Part shown: positions 16,405-64,000 of the stretch, piece by piece | Position numbering within the stretch: position 1 is the first letter of the stretch | How the letters are laid out: each line of letters begins with the position of its first letter | Source of the DNA: Candidatus Uhrbacteria bacterium CG10_big_fil_rev_8_21_14_0_10_48_11 | GTDB taxonomy: Bacteria; Patescibacteriota; Patescibacteriia; GWA2-46-9 | Assembly: GCA_002793855.1 (NCBI GenBank) | Contig: PFET01000001.1 | Span: 19,520 to 83,519 of the forward strand | DNA: 64,000 nt | Reading direction: 5' to 3' | The notes under the pieces: model-generated | Databases searched by the model: none | Told to the model about the DNA's origin: nothing | What the model saw: only the letters and a program-made list of their open reading frames with translations | Translations under genes and position numbers: made by a program

Positions 16405-19400
16405 CTACTGACTAATCGTTATAGCGTCACCGGAAGACTGCCAAGCGGCTGCGTGACTCGCGCTGCAGTCTCCCCTGCCGTCAGTATTTAACTCGTTGTA
16501 GCCAGTTTGCCCAAAGAGAGGATTGCTGTTACCGGTTGACGCGTAAGCGCCATTGCACCATCCCCAGTTATCCAAAATTTGTACGCGTGGTGTCACTTGA
16601 TAGATACCATTCACTATTGTCGTGGTCTTGGCACAGCTTCCCTCTTTGACGCAGCGAGCCACATCATCGTACGAATAACTATGCACGAGCGAGATGGGGT
16701 TTTGGTCCGAAGGGTGGCTCGCAAACTTTAGACCGGTTTGCACCGTTCGTGACCCGTCTCCCCAATCAACAATGTAGCGCACAATTGGTTCCTGTTCAGG
16801 ATTGGCAATGGCCGTAAAACTGAGGGTTACTGACCCCACTTTTGTAATGGTATTGGCCGCTCCTGAAAGTTCTACAACTGGGATAGCCGGTACAACCCCG
16901 CAAATCTCAGATCCAACACGAACATTCAGCGTTGGACCTGAACCACATTGTTCCGTTGGTACTATTAATTCTTTACTGCCGGTTTCGACATACCGATACC
17001 CGTCGGGTGTTGACTGCCACTCCCACACACCATAGCTCTGAACAAAAAGCTGTTGCAATACCTTAACTGCCTTAGTTAAACCATCAGCATAGGTCGACTC
17101 TTGAATCTCATTCAGCATGGCACCACTACTCGAACACTGTGAGCTAAATAATGGCTTATAGGTGCCTATTAATAAGCTGTTAATAGGGTGACAAGAATAT
17201 GGACCACCTGCACGCGCCTGACTTGTGCTGGTTGAAGAAGCTGATGGCTCTGCAAAAAGTGGTTGCACGCCGACAAATGTTGTTGAGTCCCAAGCAAGCG
17301 GATCGTCAGCAGGAAATGGCGGAACAACACTACCGAATGGGGGCGAATCTGTTGTAACCTTATATTCATAATTATCCTCTGCAGACGATTCATAACTAGT
17401 GCCTCTGCCCACCTTTATAGATGCTTGACTACCAGGGGTAACCCGAGATGCATAGGCACGGTTCTGCCCTGCTGAACCGACTGTTTGCATGACTGCGTTA
17501 CAGCTAAACGAAGGTCGCGCCCACAAACCGAGCGGCGTAATGTAGTCATCAGAAGACAATGACTCGATTATCAGGTAGCGGAATGGTCCCGGAATCCGAT
17601 TACCATTACTGTCGACTGCCCAGGCAACGTCAGCCCACATCTCCGCCCAACCATTGTTTGCTTGATCAGGCGAAGGACGATTGCCGAGGGATGGCGGACA
17701 AGCGGCCGATTCACACCATTCATTAATATAGTAGAGGCTACTAAGATCCTTGCTGACGTATATTTTGTATTTGTCATCACCGTCACCACCCTTGTTATTT
17801 TCCATCCAAACGCGAATTTCGCACCCGGCATGAATAAGAGGGGTAGCAGAATCTACCGCGTGGTAGTTTGCGTCGCACTTGCCGGGTTTATCAACAAGAC
17901 CACCTACCGCATATCCTTCAGTTGTTGAGTCCGCATTGCGATAAAGATCAAACACTACTTTTTCGGTTTTGTCTATTTTTCCGCCGTTATATTCAGTTTG
18001 TTGGCCATGTTTGTCTATCTTAAAGTGACTGAAAGTATCAGTTGGAACCGCCGGGCTCTTCTTACCACCCGTGTAATCAGGAACAGTCGAAGCACCAACA
18101 GAAGAATGCAATAAGGTTGCCCAGCCATCAACAACATCTAGACACTGATACAAGGGTATCGGACCTTGGTAACCAACATGGTCCTGTTCCGTATCTTCTC
18201 CAATGATGTTGTCGACCGGCCACCACTGCAAACAGTTGCTACTGTTCTGTGGATCGGGTGTTAAACAATACCCCAATTTCCCGCGATGACGGAGGCCGTT
18301 GTCATCATTGTATTGACAAGAGAGTGACGTCTCTTCTGGGTACAGGCGGCAGGACTGTGATGCATAGCTGTAGTCGAGCGTCTCGATGCCATTTTCGTAA
18401 TCTACGTTCGGAAAATCTGGATCTACATGAAGGATGTCACAAGTATTTCCAGCACCACAATCGTCATCGACTTGGCATAACTTTGTTACATTGTTAGAAC
18501 AATAACGGTATTCATTGCGACGATACTCAAGTGCGGGCTGGAGCTTAATATCGTCTACGTACCAATTACCGGAGCTATTTTCCGTACTGCCTCCTTTGGC
18601 AAACCAGCCGAATTGAAGGCGGATATAACGAGTATCCTCATCAGTAGTGAATTTATCCACTTTTGTGGTCCAGTCAAAACCTGCACCTGTATCGAGAAGA
18701 GCTAAGAATTTACAGGTACCGGCGGTATTACAGGGTACGAGATCACCATTTGTTTTGTACTGAAAGACTCTGATGCCAGCGCTCTTACCCGAGAAATGCA
18801 CCGTGTTGACATCAGCAGACAAAATATAATCTGCTTCGCCAGCGACATTAATTGTTCCGCTATAATTAGCGAGATTGGGTGCTAAACTGTCATCAATAAA
18901 CTGCGGAACATCAGGTACCTTATGGTTAGCATTCACTTCTAAAAACGCCCTGCCTTCTCGTGGGTACAGTATGCCAACAGACTGAGCGCTTACCGGATTA
19001 TTGATGACTCTAAAATTCTGTCCATTACCCCAGCCAACCCAACTCACCGCATTACCTTGTGTGCTTGGTATTTCAAAGTTTGCATTCACGAGTAGCGCTA
19101 ACTGGCCAACTTGCTCCATATAACCCGGACTAATGTAACCCTGAAGTAGCCTTGGTGTGCATTTCCCTGAACCACAATCGGCATCAGTAGTGCAACTCGT
19201 TGACGAATTGTTAGAACAGACATTACCCCAATTAAAACCAACGCTCGAATAACCAGAGCGGTCTTTTAATTGATCGACGGTAGAAGCGGCGTACGTAAGG
19301 TCTTTGTCTGGCTCATCAAGAGTCGTACGTATACATTGACCTTTATCATCGAGCTGTTCGCATCCCTCGACAGCAAGACAGATATTTCGCCTTACACTAT

Positions 19401-22400
19401 TGCGTGTTACCGTACGGGCTGTCTTACAAGCGAGCCAACTACCACACTCTCGGCTCGGTTGTACCTTGACCAGCAAATTAGAATCGCGCTGAAACTGACA
19501 ATCGCTATCAGCGGTACATGAAAGGCCAACCGTACCTCGACAAATGCCAGAAGTTCCCGTGGCTTGATCGGCACCAACGCAAGAATATTCTGTTCTAGTC
19601 GTACCATTAGGAGTCTTTGTATCCCCTAACGGGCTCATATCAGCGTCGTAGGTATTGACGATAGGCGACTTGTAACTCGTTTGGAAACTAGCAAGGACGC
19701 AGTTGGCATTATTGACCGTACCGGCACAACTTGCAGTATCAAGCTGATCCACAAGTTCGTAATGAATACTGGCCTCGCGAAGCGACACATTTCTTGTCTT
19801 TACTGCGCCAGTTGCAAATTCACCGCTCACGTTAGATGGCAATAAATCATGAGCTTGTCCGACGCGGACGCTACAATTTTCTACGTCATCAGTATTTTTT
19901 ACGTAGAAGCTTACACTAAACCGATCGAACGAATCTTTCTTTGTAGGTTCAATAAAAGTATACGGCGACCCTTGAATGGATAGTGACGAACCAGGACACT
20001 GGATACCGAGATAAGCATTTGCGGCAAGCGAACCGCTGACAGCTTCCGCTTCTGCTGAAAGTACATAAAGCGTACGCTTGCGCAAAGTTACGTTTGACTG
20101 TTCAAACCCGCCACTGCTAATAGTTAAGGTATTCAGGTTTTGGTTGTAATGATAGGTTGTTGACGGTGAAGCAATCGACGTCCATGATCTTGGTGTTGTG
20201 CCATCAGAAGCAATAAACGAACCATTAATCAGTAGATCCCGAGTACCGTCTGAGCGAGGGTCAACTATTTCTTTGCAACTATTCTGCTGCACGGGGCAAG
20301 TACCAACGTAGCCAGCTATTGGCTCCTGGGCGGTCGAACCAGCAATTTGTACACGAGGTACGGTTGTATTGGTAATAGTACGATTACAGTCAGGACTTGT
20401 CGCGGATGAATCTTTCTTATACCAACCGGAAACTGGACGGTCGGTGTGGTATTCACAGGTTTGATCTCCCGGATCTCTAAAGTAGTAAACACTTCCGGCG
20501 GCATCCTTAAAGGCAGAACACTGCAACTGATCAAGCTTGCAGAGAATAACCCCATAATCATCGGGATTATTTTTAAGGTAAACACTTGACCACGGTGTTG
20601 CGCTATCGCCAAGAGCATCACGAAGAATACGCTGAGCATCACTCGCCGCTAATGTACCTGCGTCAAACTTTGCAACCAGCGAATTATAACCGGCAGCCAA
20701 AAGCTTGCTTCGCAAATCAGGCAAACACGATCCCCCTGCTGCGCACTTCAATGTCTCTAGTGCAAGTGCAGTGTTGGCTTTGATTGACCGGTCAACTTTA
20801 CCCAACGCCTGACAACCCTGCGCTTCTGTCTTGCAAGTTTTTGTCGGATCGTTAACAAGGTAGTCAACCGAATCGGCCGGTACGGTAATAAGGCTATTGT
20901 CTTCAGCGTCATTAAATGACCTCGCAAAAGGCGCGTCACCTCCAACCGTAGTGTTCTGCGTGTCGATGACCGCTTCACAGCCAACAACCTTAGCGTGACA
21001 GGCGGCGCCAAACTGCCAAACGTCTTTGCTTGAGCCGTCACTTACCTGATACTGCTGACAACCAAGGAACGGCTGACGAGCGGCATCGTTAGAGTAACAG
21101 GAAAGCGGTGTACGCCAACTATTCTTGACGAGATAATGAGTGTCGGTAGTTGTTTTGAGCTCTATGTTGTCAATAAATACCTTGCCGGTACCGGATGGCG
21201 TTATTGCTAATGTCGTCACCGCATCGCTAGCACTGACAGCAATACTCACTGGATCACTTTTGATTTGTCGCCATTCACTAGTTAACAACGCATCCGTTAC
21301 CAAGGTACCATTGGTTACCCCGTTACCACTGATGGCGGCGCTGATCGCCGCTGTTGCCGTACCGGTTTGTGTACGTGCCCAGAAAGTAACGACATAAGTT
21401 GCCGGGGCAATTGTACCGGAGGTACCACTGGTGCTGCTACCAGCATTAACGGTAACCGCTTTCTCGGCAACCGCCTCGGTAATCTCGTACGAGTGTCCGC
21501 CAACAACACTAGAAACAGCGCTCAACTGTCCGCCAGACCACTCTGCAGTACCTTTCTCGAACGTATCATTCAATACTGTTCGGTAGCTAGCCGACGTTCC
21601 TCCGCGATACTCACGACAACCAGCAACCGCAGCGCTACACTGTCTACCACCATTTGGTACGGCCTGATAAATACATACTTGAATGCTGGTATTCCACCAA
21701 CCGTTCGAATTAGCACAGTCTTGTTGGTTAGAATCTGTCTTTCGCAACGGATGGCAAGAATCGGTAACGCTCACCGTTTTTGAAAGCAACCGGTAAGAGA
21801 TTTGACCTGTTTCGTTATAGAACTGTCGACAATCGGGGTTTGACTGATAAGTATTCTCGTTACAGGTTCGCCACGCTGTATCGCCTGCGTTACTGGTATC
21901 GCTGCATGAAGCGCTTATCCCATCGCTACTCCAATTGATGTGCGTGCAGGGAGCCGCCAAGTCGTTACCGGTGCTGCCTGCAGTCGTGCTGAATCCGGAA
22001 GGATTCGTCGCCTCTGTTTTCTTCAGTTGGAATACGCGCAACTGGAAGCCAGTTTCGTCAGACCCTTCCCATGTGTAGAACGTACCACTGTCAGTTCCTC
22101 CTGGCTTTTGGCAAAACTGTACCTGCTGATAGTACTCACGCGCCTCACCGCCGGATGTTTCCTTGTCGAGATTTGTAAACTCATCACAACCCACCGCAGC
22201 CGCAGGACAACTTTGACCTGTTGCAGGAATGAGATCGACAAACTTTGGTTTCTCGAAAAAGGTTGCCGTCTGAGTATAAGTATCAAAACCTACACACTCT
22301 GTCGGACAACTCTGTCCGCTTACAGCCGTTACTGTTGCTGTCCCGTTTGCAGGGGTGTAGCTCCGGCAACCAACCTCCGCCGGTAAACAATATCGCGCAT

Positions 22401-25140
22401 ACGGCGTACAAGCCGCTTGATCGGCATTTGCATCGGGCGCATCTGTTGCCAAACCGTTTGGACGACAACTGCCAACATCGCCGGTCAAGGATTGATAACT
22501 AGCATCTGTTTTTGAACGATAATCAGGTGCCCGTTTTAAACGGGTCAACGAGGCACCATACGTTGTAAAAGTTGTTGGTGTTTGCCCGACGGTCAGCTCA
22601 ACAGCATCAAAGTCAACACCGGCAGATAACTGTAAGGTAAGGTTGAGACTGTCGGGTAAGGTTGTATCGTTCGCCGCAAAAGTCTTCGTTACTGAGTAGC
22701 GCGTCCAAGTATCAATAAGCGGCTGATCCAGACTGGTAAATGAGGGAGAGGCGTCGCTTCCGACCAAGCTGTACGCAATACGTCCATCGCCACTAAGGGA
22801 TTGCTTGGCGTAAAAACTAAAACCAATGGTTTGCCCAGCAAGTGGTCCGGTAAGCACCGCCTTTTGTGTAAGACTTGCGTTGTCCACATTGCTATGCAAG
22901 TAGCGCGTGCCATTAAACGGAGTGTCGGTTCCTATCCCAACCGCTGTACTATCATAGAGCCACCCTTTTGCCGAGCTGTCAGCTTCTGAAACAACCGTCT
23001 CAAAACTGGGGTTACGCAATAGGTTACTCTGTGGAGCAGTTGCTACCTTGTTACTCGTTCTGATAAAGGCACGGCAACCGTCATCTTTTTGGTCACACCC
23101 TTTCACCTGACCATTCAGATACAGCACGTCCGCATCCGCGGTACTCCACTTATTGTTACCAAGATCTTTTGTACTATAGAGTTTGCAACCAACCGAACCG
23201 GCATCGCAGCCGTTGAAATCAACAGTATTTAATAAATAAGAAACAGTAGCGCCAGATTCGGTATTGGAAAGCGTGGTACAACTGGAAAACTGAGGCTGAC
23301 ATTGCGCCTTACCAAAATCCCATACGCGCTTCTCTTCTGTGCAATAGCCATAGAACTGACAGTTGCCATTTGCATCGCGCTGTACGCAGGTTTGTTCATC
23401 TGCGCAGTAGTTTGCATCACGCGTAACCACAACCGCTGGCGGCACATCACCCGGCGAAACATACTGACCATCGCCGTCGATGTCAGTACCCTTCGTTACA
23501 GTTTGCGATATAACTTTTGGACCGGGTCCTTGTAACTTACAAAAGGCATCCGGCGGCACCAACGTCCAATTTGGATCGACAAGGTGGTAGAAAGGGTTTG
23601 GTTTTTCTGTGGTCGGAACCGTATCGTAAGCGGTCACCAACTGACGAAGCGTAATTCGTTCTTGACCAAAATATTGAATGTACCGCGCGGCAAGCTCCCA
23701 TCCAACCGGTACGATACGATACTTTCTCAAGATCAAGATAGATCGGTACGGAACACCGTCAATGTAACTCGGCTCAATTGGCTGTGGGTTCCAACCGACA
23801 AAACCAAAAGGCGCGTCGCCGTTGATGAGTCCTTGGTCAATCGCCTCTTTAACGGTTAGCCGTTGAGAAATTGCAGTCCGGAAATTGTCATTAATGACAC
23901 AATCTGTCGGTCCTGGGTTGGTATCATTGTCGCAACTAACCAGTTTCGAAAGAATATCGTACCGACCGGGGGTGCTAAAATTCGGTCGAATGTCTTGCGC
24001 TAATCGAGCGCGCGCACCTAATACTCCTTCACCTTGTGCCTGCGCCTCGTAATTACTTAGATTGGCATTACTGTGCCCACCACTACTGCCACCGGTGAAG
24101 CCTTGGGACAGCAAATTTCTAAGCAGTCCGCCGGCAAGCGCCTTAGTAAAGGTATCAACGGCATCAGCAATAACATTGCCAGTAAACGATAGCTCCCCTT
24201 GCTGTGTTGTGCCAAAAACTTCTTGCCATACCACGCGTACCGCTGTACCAGGCAACGTGATGATATCGCTTGTCCCCTTGGTAACATTTGAAAATCCGCC
24301 ATTCGTTAGTCGGTCTAGCATTGCGTTCTGTTTCGCTTCCGCTTTTCGCGACAATAAATTTGTTTGTAAGGTTAGCGCAACGCTAAGATCACTCTCTCCT
24401 GGATTAAATGACTCGCTAAAAGTAGGAAGGAAACTCTTGCTGGTAATAAACTGCTCCCAATTATTTTTTAGCGTACTAAAGGTACACTTTGGACGTGATT
24501 GAAAAGTATCGGTAAGTCCCAAATTAATGGCAATTTGAATAGAGGCACTGGGCGCACATAAATTAAGACCTTCCAGAATGCCTCCTGATCCGGCAAGGCC
24601 TGTCGTACCCCCTTGCCACGTACAACCCCCAGCGGGCACATTTGAACCTTGCACACAGGCTTCCAAAGTGTTGACCCCAGGTCGAGATACGAGTGCGCCA
24701 TTACCATTTCGACATTCACAGGTACCCCCTTGTCCGCTGATCATTCCGTCCAAAAAAACACCGGCGGCTTGATCAATGCTATTGGCAAGATATGCTCCCC
24801 ATCCTTCGGTCACAAAAAGGGGCTTTTGCCCGTGACCGCCGCTGGCAATCCATGTTGCGGTATCTTGCGCAATTTGATTGAGTAAAAATTTAACCCCTTG
24901 TCGAAAAGAAAGTGCCGCTGACTCTTTCAAACTTGCGACTAACTTATTCCAACTAAAATCTTCTAAGTGACTTTTTTGATCTTGTATATATGCCTTAATA
25001 TCGTAGGTTGGCACAGAATCAAGAAGCGGTGCTTGTGCTAAGACTTGCTGTATCTGTAAGCCAAAAACAAAAGATAATGCCAACAGCACTGACAAGATAT
25101 ACCGTTTCTTTATTTTTTTTATTTTGGTGTTCTCGCTCAT
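16405..25140 (-). CDS. giant (2911 aa) secreted Cys-rich multidomain protein; putative glycan-binding surface adhesin
   Basis: N-terminal signal/TM (ILSVLLALSFVFGLQIQQVLA). At least four modules start with the CBM4/9-like signature (LLRNPSFETV.., VLNDTFEKGTAEW.., LLINGSFIASDG.., VNANFEIPSTQGN..). Many C-x(4-6)-GC repeats are present. A C-terminal PKD-like domain is indicated by YIVDWGDGSRTV..HSYSYDD..GIYQVTPRVQILDNWG. Confidence 0.85.
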   Translation of the reverse strand: MSENTKIKKIKKRYILSVLLALSFVFGLQIQQVLAQAPLLDSVPTYDIKAYIQDQKSHLEDFSWNKLVASLKESAALSFRQGVKFLLNQIAQDTATWIASGGHGQKPLFVTEGWGAYLANSIDQAAGVFLDGMISGQGGTCECRNGNGALVSRPGVNTLEACVQGSNVPAGGCTWQGGTTGLAGSGGILEGLNLCAPSASIQIAINLGLTDTFQSRPKCTFSTLKNNWEQFITSKSFLPTFSESFNPGESDLSVALTLQTNLLSRKAEAKQNAMLDRLTNGGFSNVTKGTSDIITLPGTAVRVVWQEVFGTTQQGELSFTGNVIADAVDTFTKALAGGLLRNLLSQGFTGGSSGGHSNANLSNYEAQAQGEGVLGARARLAQDIRPNFSTPGRYDILSKLVSCDNDTNPGPTDCVINDNFRTAISQRLTVKEAIDQGLINGDAPFGFVGWNPQPIEPSYIDGVPYRSILILRKYRIVPVGWELAARYIQYFGQERITLRQLVTAYDTVPTTEKPNPFYHLVDPNWTLVPPDAFCKLQGPGPKVISQTVTKGTDIDGDGQYVSPGDVPPAVVVTRDANYCADEQTCVQRDANGNCQFYGYCTEEKRVWDFGKAQCQPQFSSCTTLSNTESGATVSYLLNTVDFNGCDAGSVGCKLYSTKDLGNNKWSTADADVLYLNGQVKGCDQKDDGCRAFIRTSNKVATAPQSNLLRNPSFETVVSEADSSAKGWLYDSTAVGIGTDTPFNGTRYLHSNVDNASLTQKAVLTGPLAGQTIGFSFYAKQSLSGDGRIAYSLVGSDASPSFTSLDQPLIDTWTRYSVTKTFAANDTTLPDSLNLTLQLSAGVDFDAVELTVGQTPTTFTTYGASLTRLKRAPDYRSKTDASYQSLTGDVGSCRPNGLATDAPDANADQAACTPYARYCLPAEVGCRSYTPANGTATVTAVSGQSCPTECVGFDTYTQTATFFEKPKFVDLIPATGQSCPAAAVGCDEFTNLDKETSGGEAREYYQQVQFCQKPGGTDSGTFYTWEGSDETGFQLRVFQLKKTEATNPSGFSTTAGSTGNDLAAPCTHINWSSDGISASCSDTSNAGDTAWRTCNENTYQSNPDCRQFYNETGQISYRLLSKTVSVTDSCHPLRKTDSNQQDCANSNGWWNTSIQVCIYQAVPNGGRQCSAAVAGCREYRGGTSASYRTVLNDTFEKGTAEWSGGQLSAVSSVVGGHSYEITEAVAEKAVTVNAGSSTSGTSGTIAPATYVVTFWARTQTGTATAAISAAISGNGVTNGTLVTDALLTSEWRQIKSDPVSIAVSASDAVTTLAITPSGTGKVFIDNIELKTTTDTHYLVKNSWRTPLSCYSNDAARQPFLGCQQYQVSDGSSKDVWQFGAACHAKVVGCEAVIDTQNTTVGGDAPFARSFNDAEDNSLITVPADSVDYLVNDPTKTCKTEAQGCQALGKVDRSIKANTALALETLKCAAGGSCLPDLRSKLLAAGYNSLVAKFDAGTLAASDAQRILRDALGDSATPWSSVYLKNNPDDYGVILCKLDQLQCSAFKDAAGSVYYFRDPGDQTCEYHTDRPVSGWYKKDSSATSPDCNRTITNTTVPRVQIAGSTAQEPIAGYVGTCPVQQNSCKEIVDPRSDGTRDLLINGSFIASDGTTPRSWTSIASPSTTYHYNQNLNTLTISSGGFEQSNVTLRKRTLYVLSAEAEAVSGSLAANAYLGIQCPGSSLSIQGSPYTFIEPTKKDSFDRFSVSFYVKNTDDVENCSVRVGQAHDLLPSNVSGEFATGAVKTRNVSLREASIHYELVDQLDTASCAGTVNNANCVLASFQTSYKSPIVNTYDADMSPLGDTKTPNGTTRTEYSCVGADQATGTSGICRGTVGLSCTADSDCQFQRDSNLLVKVQPSRECGSWLACKTARTVTRNSVRRNICLAVEGCEQLDDKGQCIRTTLDEPDKDLTYAASTVDQLKDRSGYSSVGFNWGNVCSNNSSTSCTTDADCGSGKCTPRLLQGYISPGYMEQVGQLALLVNANFEIPSTQGNAVSWVGWGNGQNFRVINNPVSAQSVGILYPREGRAFLEVNANHKVPDVPQFIDDSLAPNLANYSGTINVAGEADYILSADVNTVHFSGKSAGIRVFQYKTNGDLVPCNTAGTCKFLALLDTGAGFDWTTKVDKFTTDEDTRYIRLQFGWFAKGGSTENSSGNWYVDDIKLQPALEYRRNEYRYCSNNVTKLCQVDDDCGAGNTCDILHVDPDFPNVDYENGIETLDYSYASQSCRLYPEETSLSCQYNDDNGLRHRGKLGYCLTPDPQNSSNCLQWWPVDNIIGEDTEQDHVGYQGPIPLYQCLDVVDGWATLLHSSVGASTVPDYTGGKKSPAVPTDTFSHFKIDKHGQQTEYNGGKIDKTEKVVFDLYRNADSTTEGYAVGGLVDKPGKCDANYHAVDSATPLIHAGCEIRVWMENNKGGDGDDKYKIYVSKDLSSLYYINEWCESAACPPSLGNRPSPDQANNGWAEMWADVAWAVDSNGNRIPGPFRYLIIESLSSDDYITPLGLWARPSFSCNAVMQTVGSAGQNRAYASRVTPGSQASIKVGRGTSYESSAEDNYEYKVTTDSPPFGSVVPPFPADDPLAWDSTTFVGVQPLFAEPSASSTSTSQARAGGPYSCHPINSLLIGTYKPLFSSQCSSSGAMLNEIQESTYADGLTKAVKVLQQLFVQSYGVWEWQSTPDGYRYVETGSKELIVPTEQCGSGPTLNVRVGSEICGVVPAIPVVELSGAANTITKVGSVTLSFTAIANPEQEPIVRYIVDWGDGSRTVQTGLKFASHPSDQNPISLVHSYSYDDVARCVKEGSCAKTTTIVNGIYQVTPRVQILDNWGWCNGAYASTGNSNPLFGQTGYNELNTDGRGDCSASHAAAWQSSGDAITISQ

Positions 25141-25887: not shown

Positions 25888-26030
25888 TGGAGACTAGATA
25901 ATCTCGCGTGTGATAGGTTCTAAAGTTTGTTAATTATAGCAGAGAACGACACGCAAAGTCAAAGAGAATGGCACTAAACCGTTCTCTTTGTATTTTTAAC
26001 CTCTATCGTTCTAAAAATATCTACAAAAAA

Positions 26031-40735: not shown

Positions 40736-41584
40736 ATCTTCTCTGCCTAAAATTTTCTTCACCACGCGTTGTAATTCTTCTTCGCTATAGAAATGAATAG
40801 TGAGTTCCCCGGTACCATCTTTGTCGTCTATTTCAACTTTGGTTGCAAGTTCCCCCTCTAGTAACCCTCGATAATGGTCAAGAATATCGTCTTCGTCGTC
40901 CGCAGCGCCATTAGCAGCCGCCTGATTCTTTTGGCGCAACTTACGAACAGCTCGCTCGGTTTCGCGAACAGAAAAATTACCTTGTAGCAAGCGCTCAAAA
41001 AATTTCAACTGAGACGCCTCCGGAAGTCCGGCAATGACCTTAGCGTGTCCCTCGCTTAATTGACCCGCCCGAATGGCGTCCTGAATCTTCTGCGGCATAT
41101 CCAGTAACCGCAACGCGTTTGCAATGGATGGCCTGGTCTTCCCTACCTTCTCGGCAACCTGTGCCTGCGTCAGTTTAAATTCTTCCATCAATCGTTTGAA
41201 TGCTTCCGCGCGTTCAATGGGATTTAGGTCTTTACGTTGAATGTTTTCGATAAGCGCGAGAGAAAGCCGCTCTTGTTCATCTGCCTGGCGAACAATGACA
41301 AACACCTTGGTTAGGCCTGCCTGCTTTGCCGCACGAAAACGACGCTCACCGGCAATAAGCTGATAACGACCGCTCGGCTGCTCAGTAACGACCAGTGGCT
41401 GCAGGATGCCATGTTCTTTAATTGACTGAGCAAGCCCATCTAGCTCTTCCGCGCCAAATTCTTGACGTGGCTGCCAAGGATTCGCGTCAATAGAGGAAAG
41501 GGAAACGGATCGCATTTCGATCATAGGAAGGGGTTCAAAAGTAAGTCCCTGCTTAGTATATCGGTTTCTGTAGGGCTTTGACAA
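40727..41584 (-). CDS. parB: chromosome partitioning protein ParB/Spo0J
   Basis: ParB box GILQPLVV..YQLIAGERRFRAAKQAGL plus HTH and C-terminal dimerisation regions. No parA gene is adjacent. Confidence 0.85.
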   Translation of the reverse strand: MSKPYRNRYTKQGLTFEPLPMIEMRSVSLSSIDANPWQPRQEFGAEELDGLAQSIKEHGILQPLVVTEQPSGRYQLIAGERRFRAAKQAGLTKVFVIVRQADEQERLSLALIENIQRKDLNPIERAEAFKRLMEEFKLTQAQVAEKVGKTRPSIANALRLLDMPQKIQDAIRAGQLSEGHAKVIAGLPEASQLKFFERLLQGNFSVRETERAVRKLRQKNQAAANGAADDEDDILDHYRGLLEGELATKVEIDDKDGTGELTIHFYSEEELQRVVKKILGREDGE

Positions 41585-43164: not shown

Positions 43165-43241
43165 GGGCGCGTAGCTCAGCTGGTTAGAGCACTTCACTGA
43201 TAATGAAGAGGTCGATGGTTCGAGTCCATCCGCGCCCACCA
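43165..43241 (+). tRNA. tRNA-Ile (GAT)
   Basis: gggcgcgtagctcagctggttagagcacttcactGATaatgaagaggtcgatggttcgagtccatccgcgcccacca. It stands alone rather than sitting in a 16S-23S spacer. Confidence 0.9.
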
Positions 43242-44546: not shown

Positions 44547-46163
<1,617 letters not shown>

Positions 46164-46290
46164 GTGATAATCATCCTTGCTCCCACCCGAAAGTGAAGAG
46201 TAGGTATGATGTAACCCTCTCTACTCAATAAAGCAGAGAGGGGTGGTTACGATATAGACACACCGTCTATATCCAGAACCAAGAAATGTT

Positions 46291-46469: not shown

Positions 46470-46498
46470 TAGATAATAATAAAACCCCTCGCGGGGGT
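46470..46498 (-). terminator. intrinsic terminator ending the rpsP-KH-trmD-ruvX transcript
   Basis: On the minus strand this reads ccccgcgagggg followed by ttttattattatt. Confidence 0.55.
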
Positions 46499-46592
46499 TG
46501 TCAAGGGTCTAATTTGCCGAGTCCAGGAGGGAGACAAGCCACGAACTTGGTGTCGTGCTTGCTCCCTCCGAGGGCTCGGGTTGTGGGCCGCC

Positions 46593-47022
46593 TTAGCGCG
46601 CCCGCGAAAAAAAGATCGGACGAGTGGTGGTACGAAAGCTCCATACCACCAGTGCTACGGACTTGCCAAACGCAGTGGCAATCAGCCACCACATAAAGAT
46701 CATCTGCGCGATTTGCTGGTCCATTCTGCCTCCTCTCAGGTTGTTGAGAAAAATACTACGCCCGTATGTAAAAATCGTCAAGAGGTATTGGAGCCCGGAG
46801 GAGACGCGGCAGCGCCTCCTCAAGCTCGTCGGTGATGTTGTCGAACCACCGACCAAACGCTTCACTGGACGTCAGCGGGTACGACGCGTTGCGCAACCAA
46901 ATAACTCCTGCCACGAACGCTACCATGCCGCTGATGCCGAAATCCACTCCAATGCATAGCGCGTACCTCCTTGGTCGGTCTGACCTTATTGCAATCCTAC
47001 GAGCCGAAACAAGCAAGGTCAA
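46593..47022 (-). pseudogene. YqgF/RuvX-like putative Holliday junction resolvase, frameshifted
   Basis: Frame 1 (47022..46756) gives ..ALCIGVDFGISGMVAFVAG.. (compare the G-x-D-x-G....G-x-A RuvX N-terminus). The overlapping frame (46865..46593) gives ..IFLNNLRGG..VALVVWSFRTTT.. (compare IV-x-G-x-P-x-N-M-x-G..V..W-D-E-R-L-T-T). The TTG start overlaps the trmD stop. Confidence 0.4.
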
Positions 47023-48339: not shown

Positions 48340-48750
48340 CCACTAACGTGGCCGTAGATTGTCTATTTCTTTATTCGGGCAAAGAAACGATGGTGGAAAG
48401 TCCGCCGAAGACCGATCCGCCTCTGGCGGAAAACCCCGCCCTACGCCGACACTTACAATCAGTGGACATTCCTATGACTCACCGACGACGGTGAACTCAC
48501 CAGCTCTTTCCTGAAATACGGCAGGACTGAAAGGGCTGGGTCAAACAGCACCATCGTTACTCAACTCGTCAGTCGTCCGCCCATTCTCCTCGGTCGTCGA
48601 AGGGGTCGTGAAAAGGAAAAACGCCACGCCGGAACGCTAAAGGGGTAGGCACGTAAAGAAAAAGAATTACATAATTAATTATGTAATTCTTTCTTGTAGC
48701 TTTTTGAGCGAAAATCCCATCGTACCGGCTGTGAGCGCGGGAAGGAACGA
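48340..48750 (+). ncRNA. candidate structured RNA with RNase P RNA-like motifs (tentative rnpB-like)
   Basis: On the plus strand there is a P3-like hairpin tttctttattcgggcaaagaaa followed by GGAAAGTCCG (compare the P4 5' strand GGAAAGUCCGGGC). A GACTGAAAGGGCTGGGTCAAACAGCACC segment resembles AGGGUGAAA..GGUAAGAGCGCACC. An AAAGGGGTAGGCACG segment resembles AUAGGGG..GGUACGG. An ACCGGCT lies near the 3' end. A clear 3' P4 partner could not be identified. Confidence 0.3.
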
Positions 48751-49009
48751 GTGGTAGCTAGATACGAACAAGCTGTCTGACGAAGCGGGAGACGAGGAGT
48801 GCTTGTTCGTCACCACTCGTCCTGAAGCGCGCCGTCAGCCGGGTACGTAGGGGGTCATTTTCTGATTACTTTATTCGGCCTCGACGCTTATTTAATATTG
48901 TAAGGAATCGGAGTCCCGACTGATCGTCGGGAGCGAGCAAGAAATGAGGCAACCTACAGTCCCGACGTTACGTTGGGACAAGATTCACAAATAAAAACCA
49001 ATCATTACT

Positions 49010-57937: not shown

Positions 57938-58013
57938 TGGGGCGGCCAGAGGGAGTTGAACCCTCGCCGAGAGGTCCACAACCTCTTGTGCTAACCGTTA
58001 CACCATGGCCGCC
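57938..58013 (-). tRNA. tRNA-His (GTG) with encoded G-1
   Basis: The reverse complement is g-gcggcca-tg-gtgt-aacggtta-gcac-a-agagg-ttGTGga-cctct-cggc-gaggg-ttcaact-ccctc-tggccgc-c-cca. The extra 5' G pairs with C73, which is characteristic of tRNA-His. Confidence 0.85.
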
Positions 58014-58078: not shown

Positions 58079-58693
58079 TTATAAAGTACTAATCGGCCGA
58101 GACTGGGTAATATAAAACTTATTCTTAACCAACGCCCATTCTATGTCTTGTGGATGTTTATCATGTTTTTCAATACCAGAACAAATCTTAGCTAACTCAA
58201 CTATTTGTTTACCAGTAAGCTTTTGCCTGCCACCAACTTTAGCACTTAATTTTTTTTCTATGTTTCCTTTTAATGCTTTAACAATAGCTATTTTTTGCTC
58301 AGAAACATTTACATCCAACAAAGAATAATCTTTTTTCAAAATAATATAAGTGCCGAGTGTTACTTGGCCGGAAACAAGGGCTTCACCTAAACCTAAACCA
58401 GCCTCAATTACCATTTGGTCGTAATCGTTCGTTACTGGATGCACGGTAAAAGTAATACCTGATACTTCAGATTGCACCATTTGCTGAACTACCACCGCCA
58501 CGGAAACTGGTTTTTTGTGTAATTTTTTTTCAAAACGATAAAAGATAGCGCGTGAAGTAAACAAAGAAGACCAACATTTAATTACTGATGGAATTAAATT
58601 TTTTTGCGAAACATTCAAATAAGTTTCTAACTCCCCCGCCCAGGAAGCTACTTTTGAATCTTCAGCTGTAGCCGATGAGCGTACAGCCACCAA
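58079..58693 (-). pseudogene. fragment of a PEP-utilising enzyme (PPDK_N / pyruvate phosphate dikinase nucleotide-binding domain), N-terminally truncated
   Basis: VAVRSSATAEDSKVASWAGELETYLNV and downstream segments match the PF01326 core. It has only a TTG start and lacks the ~100 aa N-terminal part of the domain. The sequence is very AT-rich. Upstream there is only a 4-codon ATG ORF behind a good Shine-Dalgarno. Confidence 0.5.
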
Positions 58694-58917
58694 AATATTC
58701 TTACCTTTGCTTCATTTTTTATATTCCTCCTTTATTTCCTTCTGTCAATCAAGTGGCATTTTTTCGCGATGAATAATATCGCGCCTTTCTTCCGGCGCTT
58801 TTTCCACCGAATTAATATTGTTTGATTTTACACTATGCAAAACGTTTTCCAGCTCAACATTAATATCTGTCTCAATCATATTTAAAGGTCCCAACAAACA
58901 TAAACAATAACTAATCT

Positions 58918-59802
58918 TTACTTTTTACGTTTTTCTTCTTGCATTTTTCTATAAAGGTCTTGTAACTCATCAAGGCGATTCATATCTACACCATATTCTT
59001 CTCCTCGGAATTTTATCTTTAAACTCACTTCACCGTCGCTGTCTCGGTTAATGTCAAAAACAACTCCTTCACCGGCATTAAAAGCGCCACCTATTTCCTC
59101 AAGTTTTTCAAACCCACGAGTTCCGTCCTTTTGAAGCATTATTTCGCTCAATAAGGCATCCGGCTTTGGACCGTGGGTTAAATTTTCGATACGAAGGTCT
59201 GTATCTTCGTATAAACGGTCAGACATTTTTACTCCAATACTAAGTCGATGGGCAAGTTCAGCCGCCACTTCTTCTGATGTTAAGGTACCAGCCGCTTTGG
59301 CTTTATCTGGATTATCTATCCAAAATTGAATTACTTCTGTTACATCTTTTGCACCGGCTTCCTTAGATTGTTTCATAACCGTCGCAAAATTTTTTACCGG
59401 GTCAAGATCCCCCGAGCGATAAATAACTACGTCCCCCGGTGGCATTTTTCCATGACCAGCTTTTTCTTGTGCCTCGGCGCTCATTTCTTTATTTACCAAA
59501 GCGGCAGCACCGGCTTCATCTCTAAAACTTCCTGCAATATGACCACCCGTCTCTCTCCCTCTCTTTACCCTTTTACTACCAGTAACCATTAAATAAGTTG
59601 CTTCATCTGCTAAATCTCCACCAGTTTTTTGGGCATTAGCAATTCCTTGTTCGGTTATAAAATCAGCTGACATCCCGTCGGGTAACTTACCAGGATTCTC
59701 GTGACGTCTCAAAACAAACTGTACAGAAACATTTTTCCCTTTTTCTCTACCCGCATCTTTGGCTTCTCTATGCGCCTCAGAAAATGACTTTTCTCTAAAC
59801 AC
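58918..59802 (-). CDS. hypothetical protein (island gene)
   Basis: Intact 294 aa hydrophilic ORF with no motif recognised. Confidence 0.4.
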   Translation of the reverse strand: MFREKSFSEAHREAKDAGREKGKNVSVQFVLRRHENPGKLPDGMSADFITEQGIANAQKTGGDLADEATYLMVTGSKRVKRGRETGGHIAGSFRDEAGAAALVNKEMSAEAQEKAGHGKMPPGDVVIYRSGDLDPVKNFATVMKQSKEAGAKDVTEVIQFWIDNPDKAKAAGTLTSEEVAAELAHRLSIGVKMSDRLYEDTDLRIENLTHGPKPDALLSEIMLQKDGTRGFEKLEEIGGAFNAGEGVVFDINRDSDGEVSLKIKFRGEEYGVDMNRLDELQDLYRKMQEEKRKK

Positions 59803-59848
59803 AATAATGATATATTAATTTACTAACTTTTATAAGTATACACTTTTA

Positions 59849-60823
59849 TTGGCGATTTGTCAAATTAAACGTAATGGTTCAATGCCTTTGCTTCACCCTA
59901 GGGTAAACTATGGGGATATGGCATATACAATAAATACTCATATAGCAAAGGTCAGCATGGAAGGTATTAAGTTATATAGACAACAAGAGTGGGGTACTAG
60001 AATGGTGGCTAAACCTCTTGGAGTAAACCAAAGTACAGTTGTACGTTGGTTGGCCAAAGCTCCTCAGTATGGCTGGTGTCACATCCCTTCGGAAAGTAGT
60101 AGACCTAAGATTTCTCCAAGAAGAATGGACAAAGCTATTGAAGACAGAATTGTTGAACTGCGACCGAAGAGAGGTAGATGCTCTGAAGTGCTTCAGGCCG
60201 AGTTAGCCAGAGAAGGAACAATAGTGAGTTTGAGTACGGTGCAAAGAGTATTGAAAAGAAGGTATCTAATAAAAGAACGTAGTCCGTGGAAAAAGTATCA
60301 CCTTTCAGGTGATAGACCGGTGGCAGAAAAGCCAGAAATATTAGTTCAAATGGATAATATTCATATTATGAAAACTAGAATAGAACGTATGTATGTAACA
60401 ACTTTGATTGATGTATGTTCTAGAGGGGCTGATGCCAAGGCCAGTACCAGAATCAACACTAGGAGAAGTATAGAAGTGGCCCAAACGGCTGAAAGTTTAG
60501 CCCCTTTTCCCTTCTCTTGTATTCAAACTGACCATGGATCAGAGTTTAGTACTCATTTCACTTGTAGACTGAAAGCTAAAGGTATTCGTCATAGACATAG
60601 TCGAATAAGGCAGCCCAATGACAATGCTCACGTTGAAAGATTTAATCGCACTATCCAAGATGATCTTAGAACTGAGATAAAAAGATACAAACATCACCCA
60701 CCCACCTTAAACAAACATATTAAGCTCTGATTAGACTACTACAACAATGAACGACGTCATCTTGGTTTGGGGATTCAAACCCCAGTTGAAGCGATGCGAA
60801 GGTCTTGGTCTCTATGCGATTAA
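59849..60823 (+). mobile_element. IS481/IS3-like DDE transposase gene (rve integrase core) with an in-frame TGA
   Basis: N-terminal HTH (LGVNQSTVVRWL). The DDE core is marked by VQMDNIHIM, IQTDHGSEF and NDNAHVERFNRTIQDDL. A TGA at 60728-60730 is followed in frame by the conserved tail DYYNNERRHLGLGIQTPVEAM. Terminal inverted repeats were not delimited. Confidence 0.7.
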
Positions 60824-61041
60824 TACTACTTTATTCTACGAACTATCCCTTTATTCGCATCTACCCCAGTACTACAACACCGCTACGCATGTTGAGTATG
60901 GGGCAAGCCTCTGCTGACGTACTAAGCAACTCATACTTTAATTAGAGTTACTACTCCTCTATTCGCATCTACCTCTACAAGGTCGCCATCTTTGAAAGCC
61001 AAAGTGGCAACTTTTGTGCCAATTACACAAGGAACATTTAA

Positions 61042-61374
61042 TTATCGAGAAACAATAGCGGCATGTGAGGTAATATCACCTACGTTCGTTACAATAGCTC
61101 CGGCTTTACGCATAGCGCTCACAATATCCGGCGTGGTGGCAATAGAAACAAGAATATCTCCTTGCTTCGTCTTTTTACCGTCAGTAAAAGGATTAGTAAT
61201 TATTTTTACCCGCCCTTCAATATGACCAGAACCCTTACTCACCACTAAACCTTTTATGATTTTGGTGTTTTGATAAACTTTGGGGTTATATATCTTAAAT
61301 ACCACTTCGGCTCTTTGACCATAAAATTCAGCAATTTTCTCCTTCCCCGACACCCAAACATAAGCTTTTTGCAA
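61042..61374 (-). pseudogene. fragment encoding a PEP-utilising enzyme mobile (phosphohistidine) domain
   Basis: GDILVSIATTPDIVSAMRKAGAIVTNVGDITSHAAIVSR matches the PF00391 core, with the conserved TSHAAIV catalytic His segment. The fragment is only 110 aa and has no C-terminal partner domain. Confidence 0.55.
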
Positions 61375-61492
61375 GAAACTATTTTGTTACAATTAAGTTT
61401 TTTGCCCTCGGCTAATTGCAATACTTCCGACGGCCAACACCATAGCCAGTCATTAAACTTCCAATTATTACGACGACCGATTTCTTTGACTA

Positions 61493-62314
61493 TTAAATCT
61501 TCATAATATTGCATACGCCAAATATAACCCTTGCGTAAATCTTACGCCACCAAATTGTATGACTAAGTTGGTCTACGGCTAGTTGAATATCTCGAGGAAG
61601 CTTTAATTTTTTAACTAAATTCTTTTTCTTTTTTTTAGTTTCAGTAATTTGTTGAACAATTTGTTTTTTTAATGTCGGCGTTATTTTGAATAATAAATTT
61701 TTTAGTTGTCTATAAAAATATTTTTCATTTAAAATCCTGTTACCGCCATAACTGTTTAATAGCCAATGATATTTTTGAGTGTGTTCGGCAAGGGCTATTT
61801 TGAATAATTTGTTGTTTTTTATAGAGGCCAAGTTCAACAAATCTAGCTCCTCTTGTTGAAAAAATGAACACTTAACAGGGGCTAATAATATTTCTAAATA
61901 TTCTTCAGCTTTACCAATGTTAATTTTTTTTAATCTACGTAAAAGCCACGGCTCACCTCCATAATTGGCAATTTCCGGCACATGGACAATATTACAAAAA
62001 AAATCTATAAATTGATGAAAATTTTTATAGAGAGTTGATAATGCTTTATCGGAAAGTTCTTTGAAATTAATCGCCTCTAAAACTTTTGCCATCTTATAAT
62101 ATTGTTTAACCAAATCTTCCCACAGATTCCAAAGAGTTTTGTATTTATTTTTATTAAATAAATAAGACACAAAATATTTTTTGCCAATTTCTTCTAGATC
62201 GGAGCGATAACCATTATAAGTGACTTTATTGTCTTTAAAAACCAATATGGCTTTGGGCCATGGCCAAGGACAGTATTTTTTACTAACTCTCATGACCCCT
62301 AATAATATTTCCAC
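61493..62314 (-). CDS. hypothetical protein, very AT-rich (possibly the upstream part of the degraded PEP-utilising enzyme gene)
   Basis: 273 aa ORF with Lys/Asn/Tyr-rich, A/T-run-laden codons. It is contiguous with the 61254..61514 and 61042..61374 fragments on the same strand. Confidence 0.4.
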   Translation of the reverse strand: MEILLGVMRVSKKYCPWPWPKAILVFKDNKVTYNGYRSDLEEIGKKYFVSYLFNKNKYKTLWNLWEDLVKQYYKMAKVLEAINFKELSDKALSTLYKNFHQFIDFFCNIVHVPEIANYGGEPWLLRRLKKINIGKAEEYLEILLAPVKCSFFQQEELDLLNLASIKNNKLFKIALAEHTQKYHWLLNSYGGNRILNEKYFYRQLKNLLFKITPTLKKQIVQQITETKKKKKNLVKKLKLPRDIQLAVDQLSHTIWWRKIYARVIFGVCNIMKI

Positions 62315-62524
62315 CCAGACGCCTATATAAAGAGGTCAACCATCAATAGGACATCATTTGAATAACTTTTTTGTGGAATCAATACGATAAAATAGGCTAT
62401 ATATTTCTATGTATGTCCCTACAAAAACTCTATTGTACGTAAAAATCAGCAAAGAATCGAGTGGGGTAAAAATGCTTATTTTACAGTTTTTCCTAATGAA
62501 AATGCGACGTTTTGACGCTAGGTC

Positions 62525-62553
62525 TTGACAGATTTGAAGGGGTGCGCTATATT
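62525..62553 (+). promoter_or_regulatory. consensus sigma70-like promoter (TTGACA-17-TATATT) facing the ORF-free structured region
   Basis: ttgaca gatttgaaggggtgcgc tatatt. No ORF lies downstream. Confidence 0.5.
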
Positions 62554-62559
62554 GTTTAG

Positions 62560-63947
62560 TTCCTTAAATGGAACACCCTGCTCTTTAGATATTAAACAGC
62601 TCAGAGGAGAGAGACTCTGTAGCACCACCCTCGGGTTCACGCCCGGCGTGGCGCTGCGCAAAAAGACGTAGCTCTCCAAAATAGTTGCGTCTTTTTGTTT
62701 GCTGGCAAGGTGTGCGGCAACTTCTGGGGCTAGACCTGTTTTCGGTAACACGAATCAGGGCGGCTCGCGGTAAGACTGGGTTGGTCTTGACTAACCTGCT
62801 CCTACTTCAAAGCCCTTAACTTGGGTGGTCTTCGGACCAAAACTCAAGTCCTAGCCCGGAGGTTGGTGGACATCTTACGATGACGCCTTTGTGGTGGTCC
62901 CGTTATCGGGGCACCCACCGACGTGGAGGGTCAGACTCGTTCCGCTTAACGTGGACGAGGGTTCCGGCGGAAGGCTGGTTCTGGTATCTACTAGAACTTC
63001 CCTTCTCAAAGAACATACCAGCACGCACCTTCGGGTAGTGTGTTGCCCTAACCCCCAGATCGGTGGGTTATTCTATAACTCACAAACATTGAAGTAGAGA
63101 TGTCCCTCGTGCCGCAACGGCACATCATCTCTGCTTACAACTCGCGTGGCATGAGAGTTCCTGCCCATCGGGGGACGAGGCAGGACCAGAAAAGGAAACC
63201 GAGGGAAATTCCGCCCTCACCTTTTCGCTCGTATTGCTGCGCCGGCGGAGTGGTTGTGGTTGCGCGTATCCCTGCACCCACCCTCCGCCGAATTTTGACC
63301 GAATGGCCTTAGGTTAGATTTTGTCTAACCTCCACCTCGGTTACTGGCGCCGACGAACAATAAAAGTCCTCTCTAAGAGGGGGCCAACACTCGATATTGT
63401 ACTCGTCCGCGCTGTTCAGGGGGCTTGGCTTGTCTGTACTCGCCAACGCCCCCTTCCTCTTTACGCGATAGAGAAACGCGCCCATTGCGATGAACGGCAT
63501 GAACCGTTAATCTCAATGGGCGCCTTAGGCCTCCTTCGGCGCAAACCGGCACCGGCGGCGAATCGGGCAAATGAGCCGCCGGTGCCACCAAATTTTCCGA
63601 GGAGGTACGATCCTCCACTCCTCGGGATCGGAGGGAGTCAGTAAAGGGTGAGACGTTTCCCAAAATGCTCACCCCAAGCTGTACTCCCTCCAACTATCCA
63701 CTGGGTCACCGCCCCCGACCTAGTGGACTAGGGAGAAGAGTGTGCGTGTTAGGTAAGTCGCCCCACAAATGACTAACCTTTACCGCACTCTTCTCCCTCC
63801 CTTTCTCTGTGCTATCCTACTAATGAGCAACTGTTCATTTCCTCTCGTGGGGCAAGTAGCTCTCAAACACAAACGTCTCTCAAACGAGAAACGTATGTCG
63901 CGAGAAAATCTCTCTCCTCCTACTTGCCCCGCGAGAGGATACGCAAA
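62560..63947 (+). other. ~1.4 kb GC-rich ORF-free region dense in long perfect hairpins: candidate large structured ncRNA or a cluster of palindromic elements
   Basis: No ORF longer than 107 aa on either strand, and none with a recognisable product. Hairpins include caaaaagacg..cgtctttttg (62678-62716), ggcaccggcggcg..cgccggtgcc (about 63548-63586), ggagaagagtgtgcg..cgcactcttctcc (about 63728-63800) and cctctcgtggggcaagtag..ctacttgccccgcgagagg (about 63838-63937). It is bounded by the promoter at 62525 and the terminator at 63948. Confidence 0.3.
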
Positions 63948-63983
63948 CTAAAATCCCATTCAAAAGTATGGGATTTTAGTTTT
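63948..63983 (+). terminator. intrinsic terminator
   Basis: ctaaaatccca-ttcaaaagta-tgggattttag followed by tttt. Confidence 0.65.
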
Positions 63984-64000
63984 GTAAATAATAGTAATAA

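Follow-up and report, generated by a model that had tools for sequence, protein, structure and literature searches.

A conserved, structured, non-coding unit of an Uhrbacteria genome as a candidate gene for a large RNA

The 64,000-nt stretch of contig PFET01000001.1 from Candidatus Uhrbacteria bacterium CG10_big_fil_rev_8_21_14_0_10_48_11 analysed here (hereafter, the window) contains near its end, at 62525-63985 of the forward strand, a unit that an earlier note, made from the letters alone, had described as a promoter and a terminator enclosing a GC-rich series of hairpins without coding potential, and had taken either for a novel large non-coding RNA (ncRNA) or for an array of elements resembling miniature inverted-repeat transposable elements (MITEs). 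The comparison of this unit with related loci shows that it is a conserved, syntenic, single-copy, non-coding and strand-specific structured element, provided with a strong promoter and lying outside the families of Rfam 15. It is a real, and probably a new, family of large structured RNA in Uhrbacteria, and the first of the two earlier suggestions is strengthened by the conservation of its position, and partly of its sequence, in seven genomes, together with the lack of any Rfam match.

The unit, its surroundings and its homologues

The unit follows a gene for tRNA-His (57938-58012, - strand), from which it is separated by an island that had been described simply as AT-rich. The island is indeed there, although it is made up of a decayed array of phosphoenolpyruvate (PEP)-utilizer and PPDK_N genes, split by an IS481-like transposase; this array is intact in the sister genome. 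The content of G and C is 50-58% in the unit, as its GC-rich character had suggested, and 28-40% in the island alongside. The features recognised from the promoter to the terminal hairpin are the following:

62525-62553 (+): promoter TTGACA-17-TATATT, with 11 of 12 consensus positions
62559-62574 (+): leader hairpin GUUCC-loop-GGAAC, the structure nearest to the predicted start, kept in alignments A4 and A10
62579-62591 (+): pyrimidine box UGCUCUUUAGAUA, boxA-like, for which local pairing with the GGAGAGAG box is possible
62606-62613 (+): 5' box GGAGAGAG, invariant in 7/7 genomes
62659-62703 (+): terminator-like hairpin at the end of the leader, CAAAAAGACGUAGC ... GUUGCGUCUUUUUG, with a U-run (inverted repeat I6)
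62712-62875 (+): module 1, scoring 128.9 bits with covariance model (CM) R1
62915-63072 (+): module 2, a diverged tandem copy, scoring 114.9 bits with CM R1 on the + strand and 24.2 on the - strand
63076-63727 (+): variable interior with about 12 stable hairpins and no open reading frame (ORF); z-scores -3.9 to -7.4
63730-63798 (+): hairpin with a 13-bp perfect stem (inverted repeat I7); z-score -8.2
63840-63939 (+): 3' long hairpin, a 20-bp stem with inner hairpins, kept in five genomes; z-score -9.7
63910-63917 (+): 3' box CUCUCUCC within AAUCUCUCUCCU, the exact complement of the 5' box
63945-63982 (+): terminal hairpin with perfect 15-bp arms, a predicted terminator, possibly bidirectional; z-score -7.9

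The coordinates earlier given for the promoter hold. A scan of 64.6 kb (the window plus a 593-nt extension) found six sites with at least 11 of the 12 consensus positions, compared with 1.08 expected; these near-consensus promoters are located at 41578, 46504, 58066, 62525, 59863 and 25962. Three of the five strong sites other than that of the unit lie directly upstream of tRNA-Leu, tRNA-His and 16S rRNA, which suggests that near-consensus sigma-70 promoters cluster at the stable-RNA genes of this genome. Since the same consensus class precedes these three genes, the promoter of the unit matches those of stable-RNA genes in strength, and the unit thereby has the type of promoter looked for in an rRNA operon. 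In all seven genomes, TTGACA, a spacer of 16-17 nt and TAnnnT are kept, and in the window transcription is predicted to start at about 62560. At the other end, the terminator proposed in the earlier note is a hairpin with arms (63945-63959 and 63968-63982) of 15 nt each and full complementarity, although a simple terminator scan did not list it, because its T-run is partly located within the stem. A hairpin and a T-run occur at the same place in three relatives (L012, L008 and L011), with sequences differing from that of the window terminator.

Homologous loci were retrieved through homologues of the neighbouring P-type ATPase. The organism is represented by two further assemblies, which agree with the window without a difference over 12-15 kb, one of them reaching 593 nt past the window. 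In L008, L010 and L011, a hairpin-dense region of 2-4 kb is found between the side that carries HU, YmdB and RNase Y and the side of tRNA-His and the ATPase, and nhmmer matches both ends of the unit (62420-62877 and 63717-63962) in these three loci with E-values of 1e-6 to 1e-12. The sister genome, L012, was retrieved from the GTDB genomes with a pattern derived from the modules; L012 and L004 are one contig of 77,962 bp. Its unit has the same position as that of the window, diverging from the first gene of the PEP-utilizer array, and is matched by nhmmer in two segments (window 62489-63622 with L012 5417-6469, E 4.5e-106; window 63706-64225 with L012 6459-6951, E 4.8e-24). Further loci anchored by the ATPase are L042, L044 and the truncated L041.

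A gene for tRNA-His(GTG) is near the unit at all homologous loci. In L010, L011 and L042, the RNA promoter and tRNA-His are divergent, 150-380 nt apart, and this layout is probably the ancestral arrangement. In relatives lacking the PEP-utilizer array, RNase Y and YmdB are found near the RNA locus (L008 4499-4777, L010 4719-7361, L011 7636-9964, L042 7131-9447), accompanied by HU in L008 and L010; in these two genomes they are located away from the tRNA-His side, and L011 and L042 have them between tRNA-His and the ATPase. This proximity possibly indicates a link to RNA processing, but could be a coincidence.

Other ways of searching for relatives were less productive. When the 1.4 kb were compared directly with phages and plasmids, no similar sequence was found, and the adjacent 273-aa gene, used as a handle, reached only distant PEP-utilizer arrays without the RNA. 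Degenerate patterns made from spurious ORFs gave no match in genome, metagenome or viral contigs, a result that says little, because only identities of at least about 85% are detectable in this way and the source genome itself is outside those collections. With the module pattern, the metagenome scan gave 24 loci, none confirmed by the CM, the viral scans found nothing, and four of the five matches of the genome scan were discarded as chance. It has to be noted that pattern scans find close matches only and that the true range of the family is not bounded by them.

Structure and its conservation

All but one of the 200-nt windows starting from 62501 to 63801 fold better than a GC-adjusted background, by 1.85-5.15 standard deviations, and this run of hairpins is the longest, strongest and densest of the 64 kb. 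Locally, the unit folds into about 22 abutting hairpin or junction domains, joined by linkers mostly of 0-5 nt; the perfect stems in the inverted-repeat listing have 9-20 bp, so that the long perfect hairpins first noticed by eye are really there. In 17 domains, z-scores range from -3.9 to -9.7, with 0/200 shuffles folding equally well; because the borders of the domains were read off the same fold, the single z-scores are inflated, but the overall picture is unaffected. The fold energy of the unit is -681.8 kcal/mol on the + strand and -640.1 kcal/mol on the - strand, and in the 5' third the values are -222.7 and -179.3 kcal/mol, respectively, with more G-U pairs on the + strand. All three occurrences of the sequence CUUCGG are on the + strand, the modules score 115-129 bits with CM R1 on that strand and 24 bits on the opposite one, and one G-U pair is kept unchanged in all 12 known modules. 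The + strand is favoured alike by fold energy, CUUCGG, CM score and promoter.

The modules are the best characterised part of the unit. Each is an element of 160 nt built on a four-way junction, which is closed by an outer stem and by P1 (UGGAGGGUUAG with CUAACCCCCAG) and has as its arms P2, a long P3 with UGGU-tetraloop-ACUA at its end, and P4, capped by cUUCGg; in module 2, the P1 strands are UGGAGGGUCAG and CUAACCCCCAG. Twelve full copies have been found in the seven genomes, one or two per unit, and all of them, when folded individually, adopt an identical four-way-junction architecture. In the alignment of the 12 copies (A8), 89.4% of the cells are paired, compared with 72.3% in shuffles, and 25 of the 35 pairs change on both sides, compared with 14.1; none of 500 shuffles reached the observed values on any measure, and slid controls gave 31-51% paired.

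As an observation on these modules, the 5' strand of P1 reads NUG-GAG-GGU-UAG in 10 of the 12 copies, that is, a start-like codon, two codons and a stop. In the window, the P1 5' strands are located at 62721-62734 and 62924-62934, with GGAGG within them, and the P1 3' strand holds CCUCC or CCCCC. Because the two strands carry these motifs, the modules pair a Shine-Dalgarno-like sequence with an anti-Shine-Dalgarno-like one.

In the leader, the GUUCC-loop-GGAAC hairpin is helix 1 of the pairwise fold. It is followed by the pyrimidine box, G(C/U)UC(U/C)UU, present in five of the seven genomes and read as UGCUCUUUA at 62579-62587 in the window. The boxA of the rrn operons of E. coli is UGCUCUUUAACAA, to which we liken UGCUCUUUAGAUA. 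RNAalifold pairs the pyrimidine box with GGAGAGAG, and such local pairing is possible in five of the seven genomes. The 5' box is located 70-105 nt past the start of the -35 hexamer in the seven genomes. The hairpin that closes the leader, with its A-tract and U-tract, is present in all seven; of its 16 pairs, 6 have substitutions on both sides that leave them paired. All seven units therefore begin as a riboswitch or an attenuator would, with a structured leader followed by an intrinsic terminator-like hairpin, but a regulated coding sequence directly downstream is absent, the ORFs of the relatives coming only after the modules. When the leader of the 16S gene was considered as a possible counterpart of that of the unit, nothing in common was found except the promoter.

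The interior can be aligned only partly and only to L012, with compensatory changes in helices 21-34, including four compensatory pairs in the helix at 63548-63586. The hairpin at 63089-63140 and the stretch at about 63609-63727 are present in the window and absent from L012. These missing hairpins, together with the compensatory pairs, indicate an interior in which whole hairpin units come and go in evolution and the pairing is maintained. The hairpin at 63730-63798 is retained in L012 as helix 35, with three compensatory pairs. Over the whole length of the alignment with the sister species, 41 pairs change on both sides and stay paired, compared with 20.7 in shuffles and 2-6 in slid controls.

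The 3' hairpin is conserved more widely. Its 20-bp stem is 98% paired, with 11 of 20 pairs changing on both sides; for the whole hairpin the figure is 23 of 36 pairs, compared with 7.5 in shuffles, and 0/500 shuffles were as high. Compensatory changes, which had been suggested as a check on the ncRNA reading, are thus found in the leader hairpin, the modules, the 3' hairpin and, with respect to the sister species, over the whole length. The AAUCUCUCUCCU block is invariant in five genomes and variant in a sixth. The 3' box that it contains is located in an internal loop of the 3' hairpin, abutting the 3' strand of the 20-bp stem, and is unpaired in the centroid fold. Both boxes are kept in six genomes, 1092-2610 nt apart, and the contig of the seventh ends early. 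The GGAGAGAG 8-mer occurs four times on both strands of the window, two of these occurrences being the 5' box and the complement of the 3' box. At the flanking position -2, the pair is G-C in the window and L012, A-U in L008 and U-A in L011 and L042, with a U-U mismatch in L010. There is moderate evidence, taken from the sequences, that a helix of 10-12 bp may join the ends of the unit through these boxes. The energy of the box duplex was not used as evidence, because it does not stand out from that of other windows of the transcript.

No test revealed a coding signal. The longest ORFs of the unit have 107 and 106 aa, a Pfam search of its six frames gave zero matches, and the lone ORF of the gene caller, which is spurious, found only itself among 5.8 billion proteins. 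No convincing combination of ribosome-binding site (RBS) and start codon was found in the unit, nor any ORF preceded by an RBS in 62500-64593. The substitutions with respect to the sister species are spread over the codon phases as 145/136/139 (n=420, p=0.86), compared with p=7e-62 in the same phase test on the ATPase, used as a control, and 8 of the 27 indel runs are divisible by three. The unit shows, in sum, neither an open frame, nor protein homologues, nor a codon-phase pattern, and the absence of coding potential noticed at the outset is borne out by the six-frame, homologue, RBS and codon-phase results.

The comparison with known RNAs was equally negative. Over the window, the gathering scores of Rfam 15 are reached only by tRNAs and the 16S rRNA, and in the relatives only by tRNAs. 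The search at E<=10 over 62000-64000 gave noise only (12-23 bits, for thresholds of 39-141). Neither OLE, GOLLD, ROOL, HEARO and raiA nor the remaining Rfam 15 families include the unit according to their covariance models; at E<=10, the SSU, LSU and 5S models do not match its body and the group I and II intron families give no match, in agreement with the impression by eye that signatures of 23S rRNA and group II introns were lacking. No known riboswitch family matches in the Rfam searches of window and relatives. The Rfam check that had been proposed for the unit has therefore been run, and no family was matched.

Interpretation and rival readings

Taking these results together, we give an even chance to the reading that 62560-63985 (+) is a gene for a large, stable, structured ncRNA, restricted to Uhrbacteria and closely related members of the candidate phyla radiation (CPR), and organised like an rRNA operon. 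The likeness to such an operon lies in a near-consensus promoter equal in strength to the 16S promoter of the same genome, in a hairpin followed by UGCUCUUUA just past the start site, and in a leader segment complementary to the trailer, enclosing a long, untranslated and highly folded body. The unit differs in that its body is not rRNA, the boxA-like element is missing in two of the seven genomes, and the end helix would have only 10-12 bp; binding of Nus factors and cleavage by RNase III are proposed by analogy.

It can be proposed that the promoter, of stable-RNA strength, would lead to high expression, and that the boxA-like leader would allow the polymerase to pass the early terminator and 1.1-2.6 kb of untranslated RNA. 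The 5' box would then pair with the 3' box beside the 20-bp stem, clamping the ends as a long double-stranded stalk, which could protect the RNA or be a processing site of the RNase III type. The conserved modules would be the working parts, binding some protein or ligand, and in the interior the hairpins would evolve fast, with whole units gained or lost. The layout predicts antitermination-dependent read-through and a stalk formed by pairing of the ends. Because CPR genomes are very small, it is unlikely that they would retain an untranslated RNA of 1.2-2.8 kb with a strong promoter if it had no function.

Several points weigh against this reading. The promoter, the start site and the terminators are all predictions, and the terminator-like hairpin of the leader would end the transcript upstream of the modules if the polymerase did not read through it. 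Instead of serving as boxA, the pyrimidine box may form a local helix with GGAGAGAG. The end helix rests on the invariant boxes plus one covarying flank pair, which is mismatched in L010, and in terms of energy the 5' box segment has partners of about the same quality elsewhere in the transcript in five of six genomes. The interior hairpins of the window are common only to the sister species. The family sample comprises seven genomes, in which tandem copies within one genome are not independent; a small family of related sequences inflates the shuffle tests, and the structures tested came from the very alignments in which they were then counted. Moreover, five of the seven genomes have ORFs in the interior on the same strand, some of them like real small membrane proteins or lipoproteins, so that the unit may there be an mRNA with structured ends.

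This last point is the core of the main rival, according to which the conserved parts belong, as RNA elements acting in cis, to a gene cassette of variable content, the leader being attenuator- or riboswitch-like, the modules acting as sensors or stabilisers in the 5' untranslated region (UTR) and the 3' hairpin as a stabiliser in the 3' UTR, with the cargo lost in the window genome and its sister, where hairpins stand instead. Small sense-strand ORFs are indeed held between the modules and the 3' hairpin in L008, L010, L011, L042 and L044, among them a lipoprotein-like ORF of 128 aa, a HAD_SAK_2 protein and ORFs with transmembrane helices; one module of L011 sits between two such ORFs, and a conserved leader followed by a terminator is the classic layout of an attenuator. 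However, the window and its sister are without an ORF and yet keep the pairing of the interior by compensatory changes, the interior ORFs are mutually unrelated save for one pair with 30% identity, and none of them resembles the interior of the window. At least one ORF called in L010 overlaps a module and appears spurious, the GGAGG of P1 lacks a start codon at a spacing that could be used, and no known riboswitch is matched. This gene-cassette explanation is, in our opinion, a possible one, although unlikely.

The readings as a decayed gene, as mobile elements and as hairpins of the DNA itself are each contradicted by the tests. That the unit is a decayed or frameshifted protein gene (a frameshifted gene had been named in the earlier note among the outcomes that would overturn the ncRNA), for instance a further PEP-utilizer paralogue, is suggested by its closeness to the decayed PEP-utilizer array; this idea is barely credible in view of the blank Pfam result in six frames, the lack of homologous proteins, 420 substitutions without codon periodicity, indels that ignore the frame, a GC content of 56% in the unit compared with about 30% for the genes beside it, a window interior that the interior ORFs of the relatives do not match, and the failure to find any protein profile aligning across the unit. 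A pile-up of MITE-like or palindromic mobile elements, that is, selfish DNA hairpins devoid of function at the RNA level, would fit the hairpin-rich repeated unit of about 560 nt that begins directly after the terminator and is an insertion relative to the sister genome, as well as the interior hairpins gained or lost whole between the two closest genomes. We consider it very unlikely: blastn-short and nhmmer searches with 62500-64000 against the rest of the window and the related loci found no copy, and, within the 64 kb of the genome covered and the related loci (about 200 kb), the hairpins of 62525-63985 occur nowhere but at the orthologous locus, so that the array of MITE-like elements once suggested is not supported for the unit; the repeated sequence starts only past the terminator. 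In the fetched loci, CM matches of the modules are confined to the orthologous locus, and no direct-repeat flanks are apparent in the inverted-repeat listing, no dedicated search for them having been made. Furthermore, the parts shared between genomes lie at orthologous, syntenic positions and are not scattered, the promoter is itself conserved, a single strand is favoured by G-U pairs and CM scores, the hairpins abut with linkers of 0-5 nt, and pairing is maintained by compensatory changes. Finally, the hairpins could act in the DNA, where, for instance, cruciforms or single-strand hairpins could serve in recombination, in replication or as sites bound by a transposase, and the middle and 3' thirds do fold about equally on both strands, many stems being perfect Watson-Crick palindromes. 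This is nevertheless highly improbable, given the strand asymmetry and invariant G-U pairs of the 5' third and modules, the confinement of UUCG tetraloops to one strand, the bracketing of the unit by a consensus promoter and terminators, and the lack of any recombinase or replication gene linked to the locus across the relatives.

Returning to the large-RNA reading, the unit resembles OLE, GOLLD, ROOL and HEARO in being long (at least 1.2 kb), non-coding and densely structured with covariation, in its narrow phylogenetic range and in a function likewise unassigned; in addition, a tRNA gene is adjacent, as is often the case for GOLLD and ROOL. It differs from them by the lack of any sequence or structure match in Rfam 15, even at E<=10, by a length two to four times greater, by its tandem four-way-junction modules and variable interior, which bears ORFs in some genomes, by its early terminator and complementary end boxes, and by its host, Patescibacteria. 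Two related junction modules in series and a conserved intrinsic terminator in the 5' region also recall tandem glycine riboswitches and attenuators, but here the terminator precedes the modules, the window genome has no regulated ORF, and no aptamer is matched. OLE, GOLLD and ROOL each opened new biology, and, to our knowledge, very few bacterial ncRNAs above 1 kb other than rRNA have comparative support for their structure. The leader, the module and the 3' hairpin provide three covariance-model targets for Patescibacteria genomes, metatranscriptomes and structural work.

A bolder version of the same idea, which we put forward as speculative and rather doubtful, is that the unit represents a new class of RNA locus, an 'RNA-bracketed cassette', in which a 5' block, consisting of the leader and the cloverleaf-like modules, and a 3' hairpin would pair through GGAGAGAG and CUCUCUCC to enclose an interchangeable interior, made up of structured RNA alone in some species and of small genes in others, the bracket being made and matured by the rRNA machinery (antitermination of the Nus type and an RNase III stalk). 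If this were true, CPR bacteria would have a dedicated, highly expressed and self-protecting RNA chassis; once released, the modules might act together with a cellular partner as an abundant small RNA of a new kind, or might form a multimer, as ROOL and GOLLD do.

The neighbouring repeat and other features of the window

The hairpin-rich unit of about 560 nt is present in two copies, at 48355-48890 and at the window-equivalent positions 64035-64593 (L001 559-1, reverse strand). Their mean identity is 82%, with a core of 163 nt that is 96% identical and folds into a hairpin of 139 nt; stems are retained and loops have diverged, and the better fold is on the - strand. Since the rpsP-KH spacer measures 870 nt in the window and 182 nt in the sister genome, this unit is an insertion or duplication. 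A related sequence also follows the RNA locus in L012 (6762-7178); one other assembly has both of its ends within the 163-nt core, and a second ends 13 nt after it. The likeness to Rickettsia palindromic elements, Correia elements and MITEs belongs to this neighbour, which is repeated and inserted in an operon spacer; the unit at 62525-63985 differs from such elements in being single-copy, orthologous, syntenic, constrained on one strand and provided with its own promoter. Within the copy at 48.4 kb, the string 'GGUGGAAAGUCCGCC' was considered as the CR-I of RNase P, which Rfam did not bear out.

With respect to the island next to the unit, the PEP-utilizer array is reduced to split ORFs over 58079-62314, with the rve transposase of the IS481-like element at 59849-60730; terminal repeats linking this element to the hairpins were sought, and none was convincing. 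CPR genomes carry tandem arrays of 5-12 paralogues of the PEP-utilizer (PF00391), as in L004 (1-8800), L006, L007 and L041, and where the end of the array is visible (L004, L006 and L041) it is a PPDK_N (PF01326) gene.

The 16S rRNA gene (44551-46169, - strand) spans 1619 nt, compared with a model of 1533 nt, and may carry an insertion. No 23S gene follows it, and tRNA-Ile(GAT) is located downstream on the opposite strand (43165-43241, +), so that there is no linkage among the rRNA genes. In the interval that separates trmD from the 16S promoter, at about 46600-46970 (- strand), the fold of the - strand is unusually good, and two ORFs of about 65 and 43 aa have good RBSs and hydrophobic segments; the region 46480-47018 was considered as a second non-coding region of hairpins and dropped, since it probably encodes two small membrane proteins. 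Elsewhere, an ORF of 2911 aa (16405-25140, - strand) is preceded by one of 246 aa, and the predicted near-consensus promoter at 25962 (- strand) would drive it.

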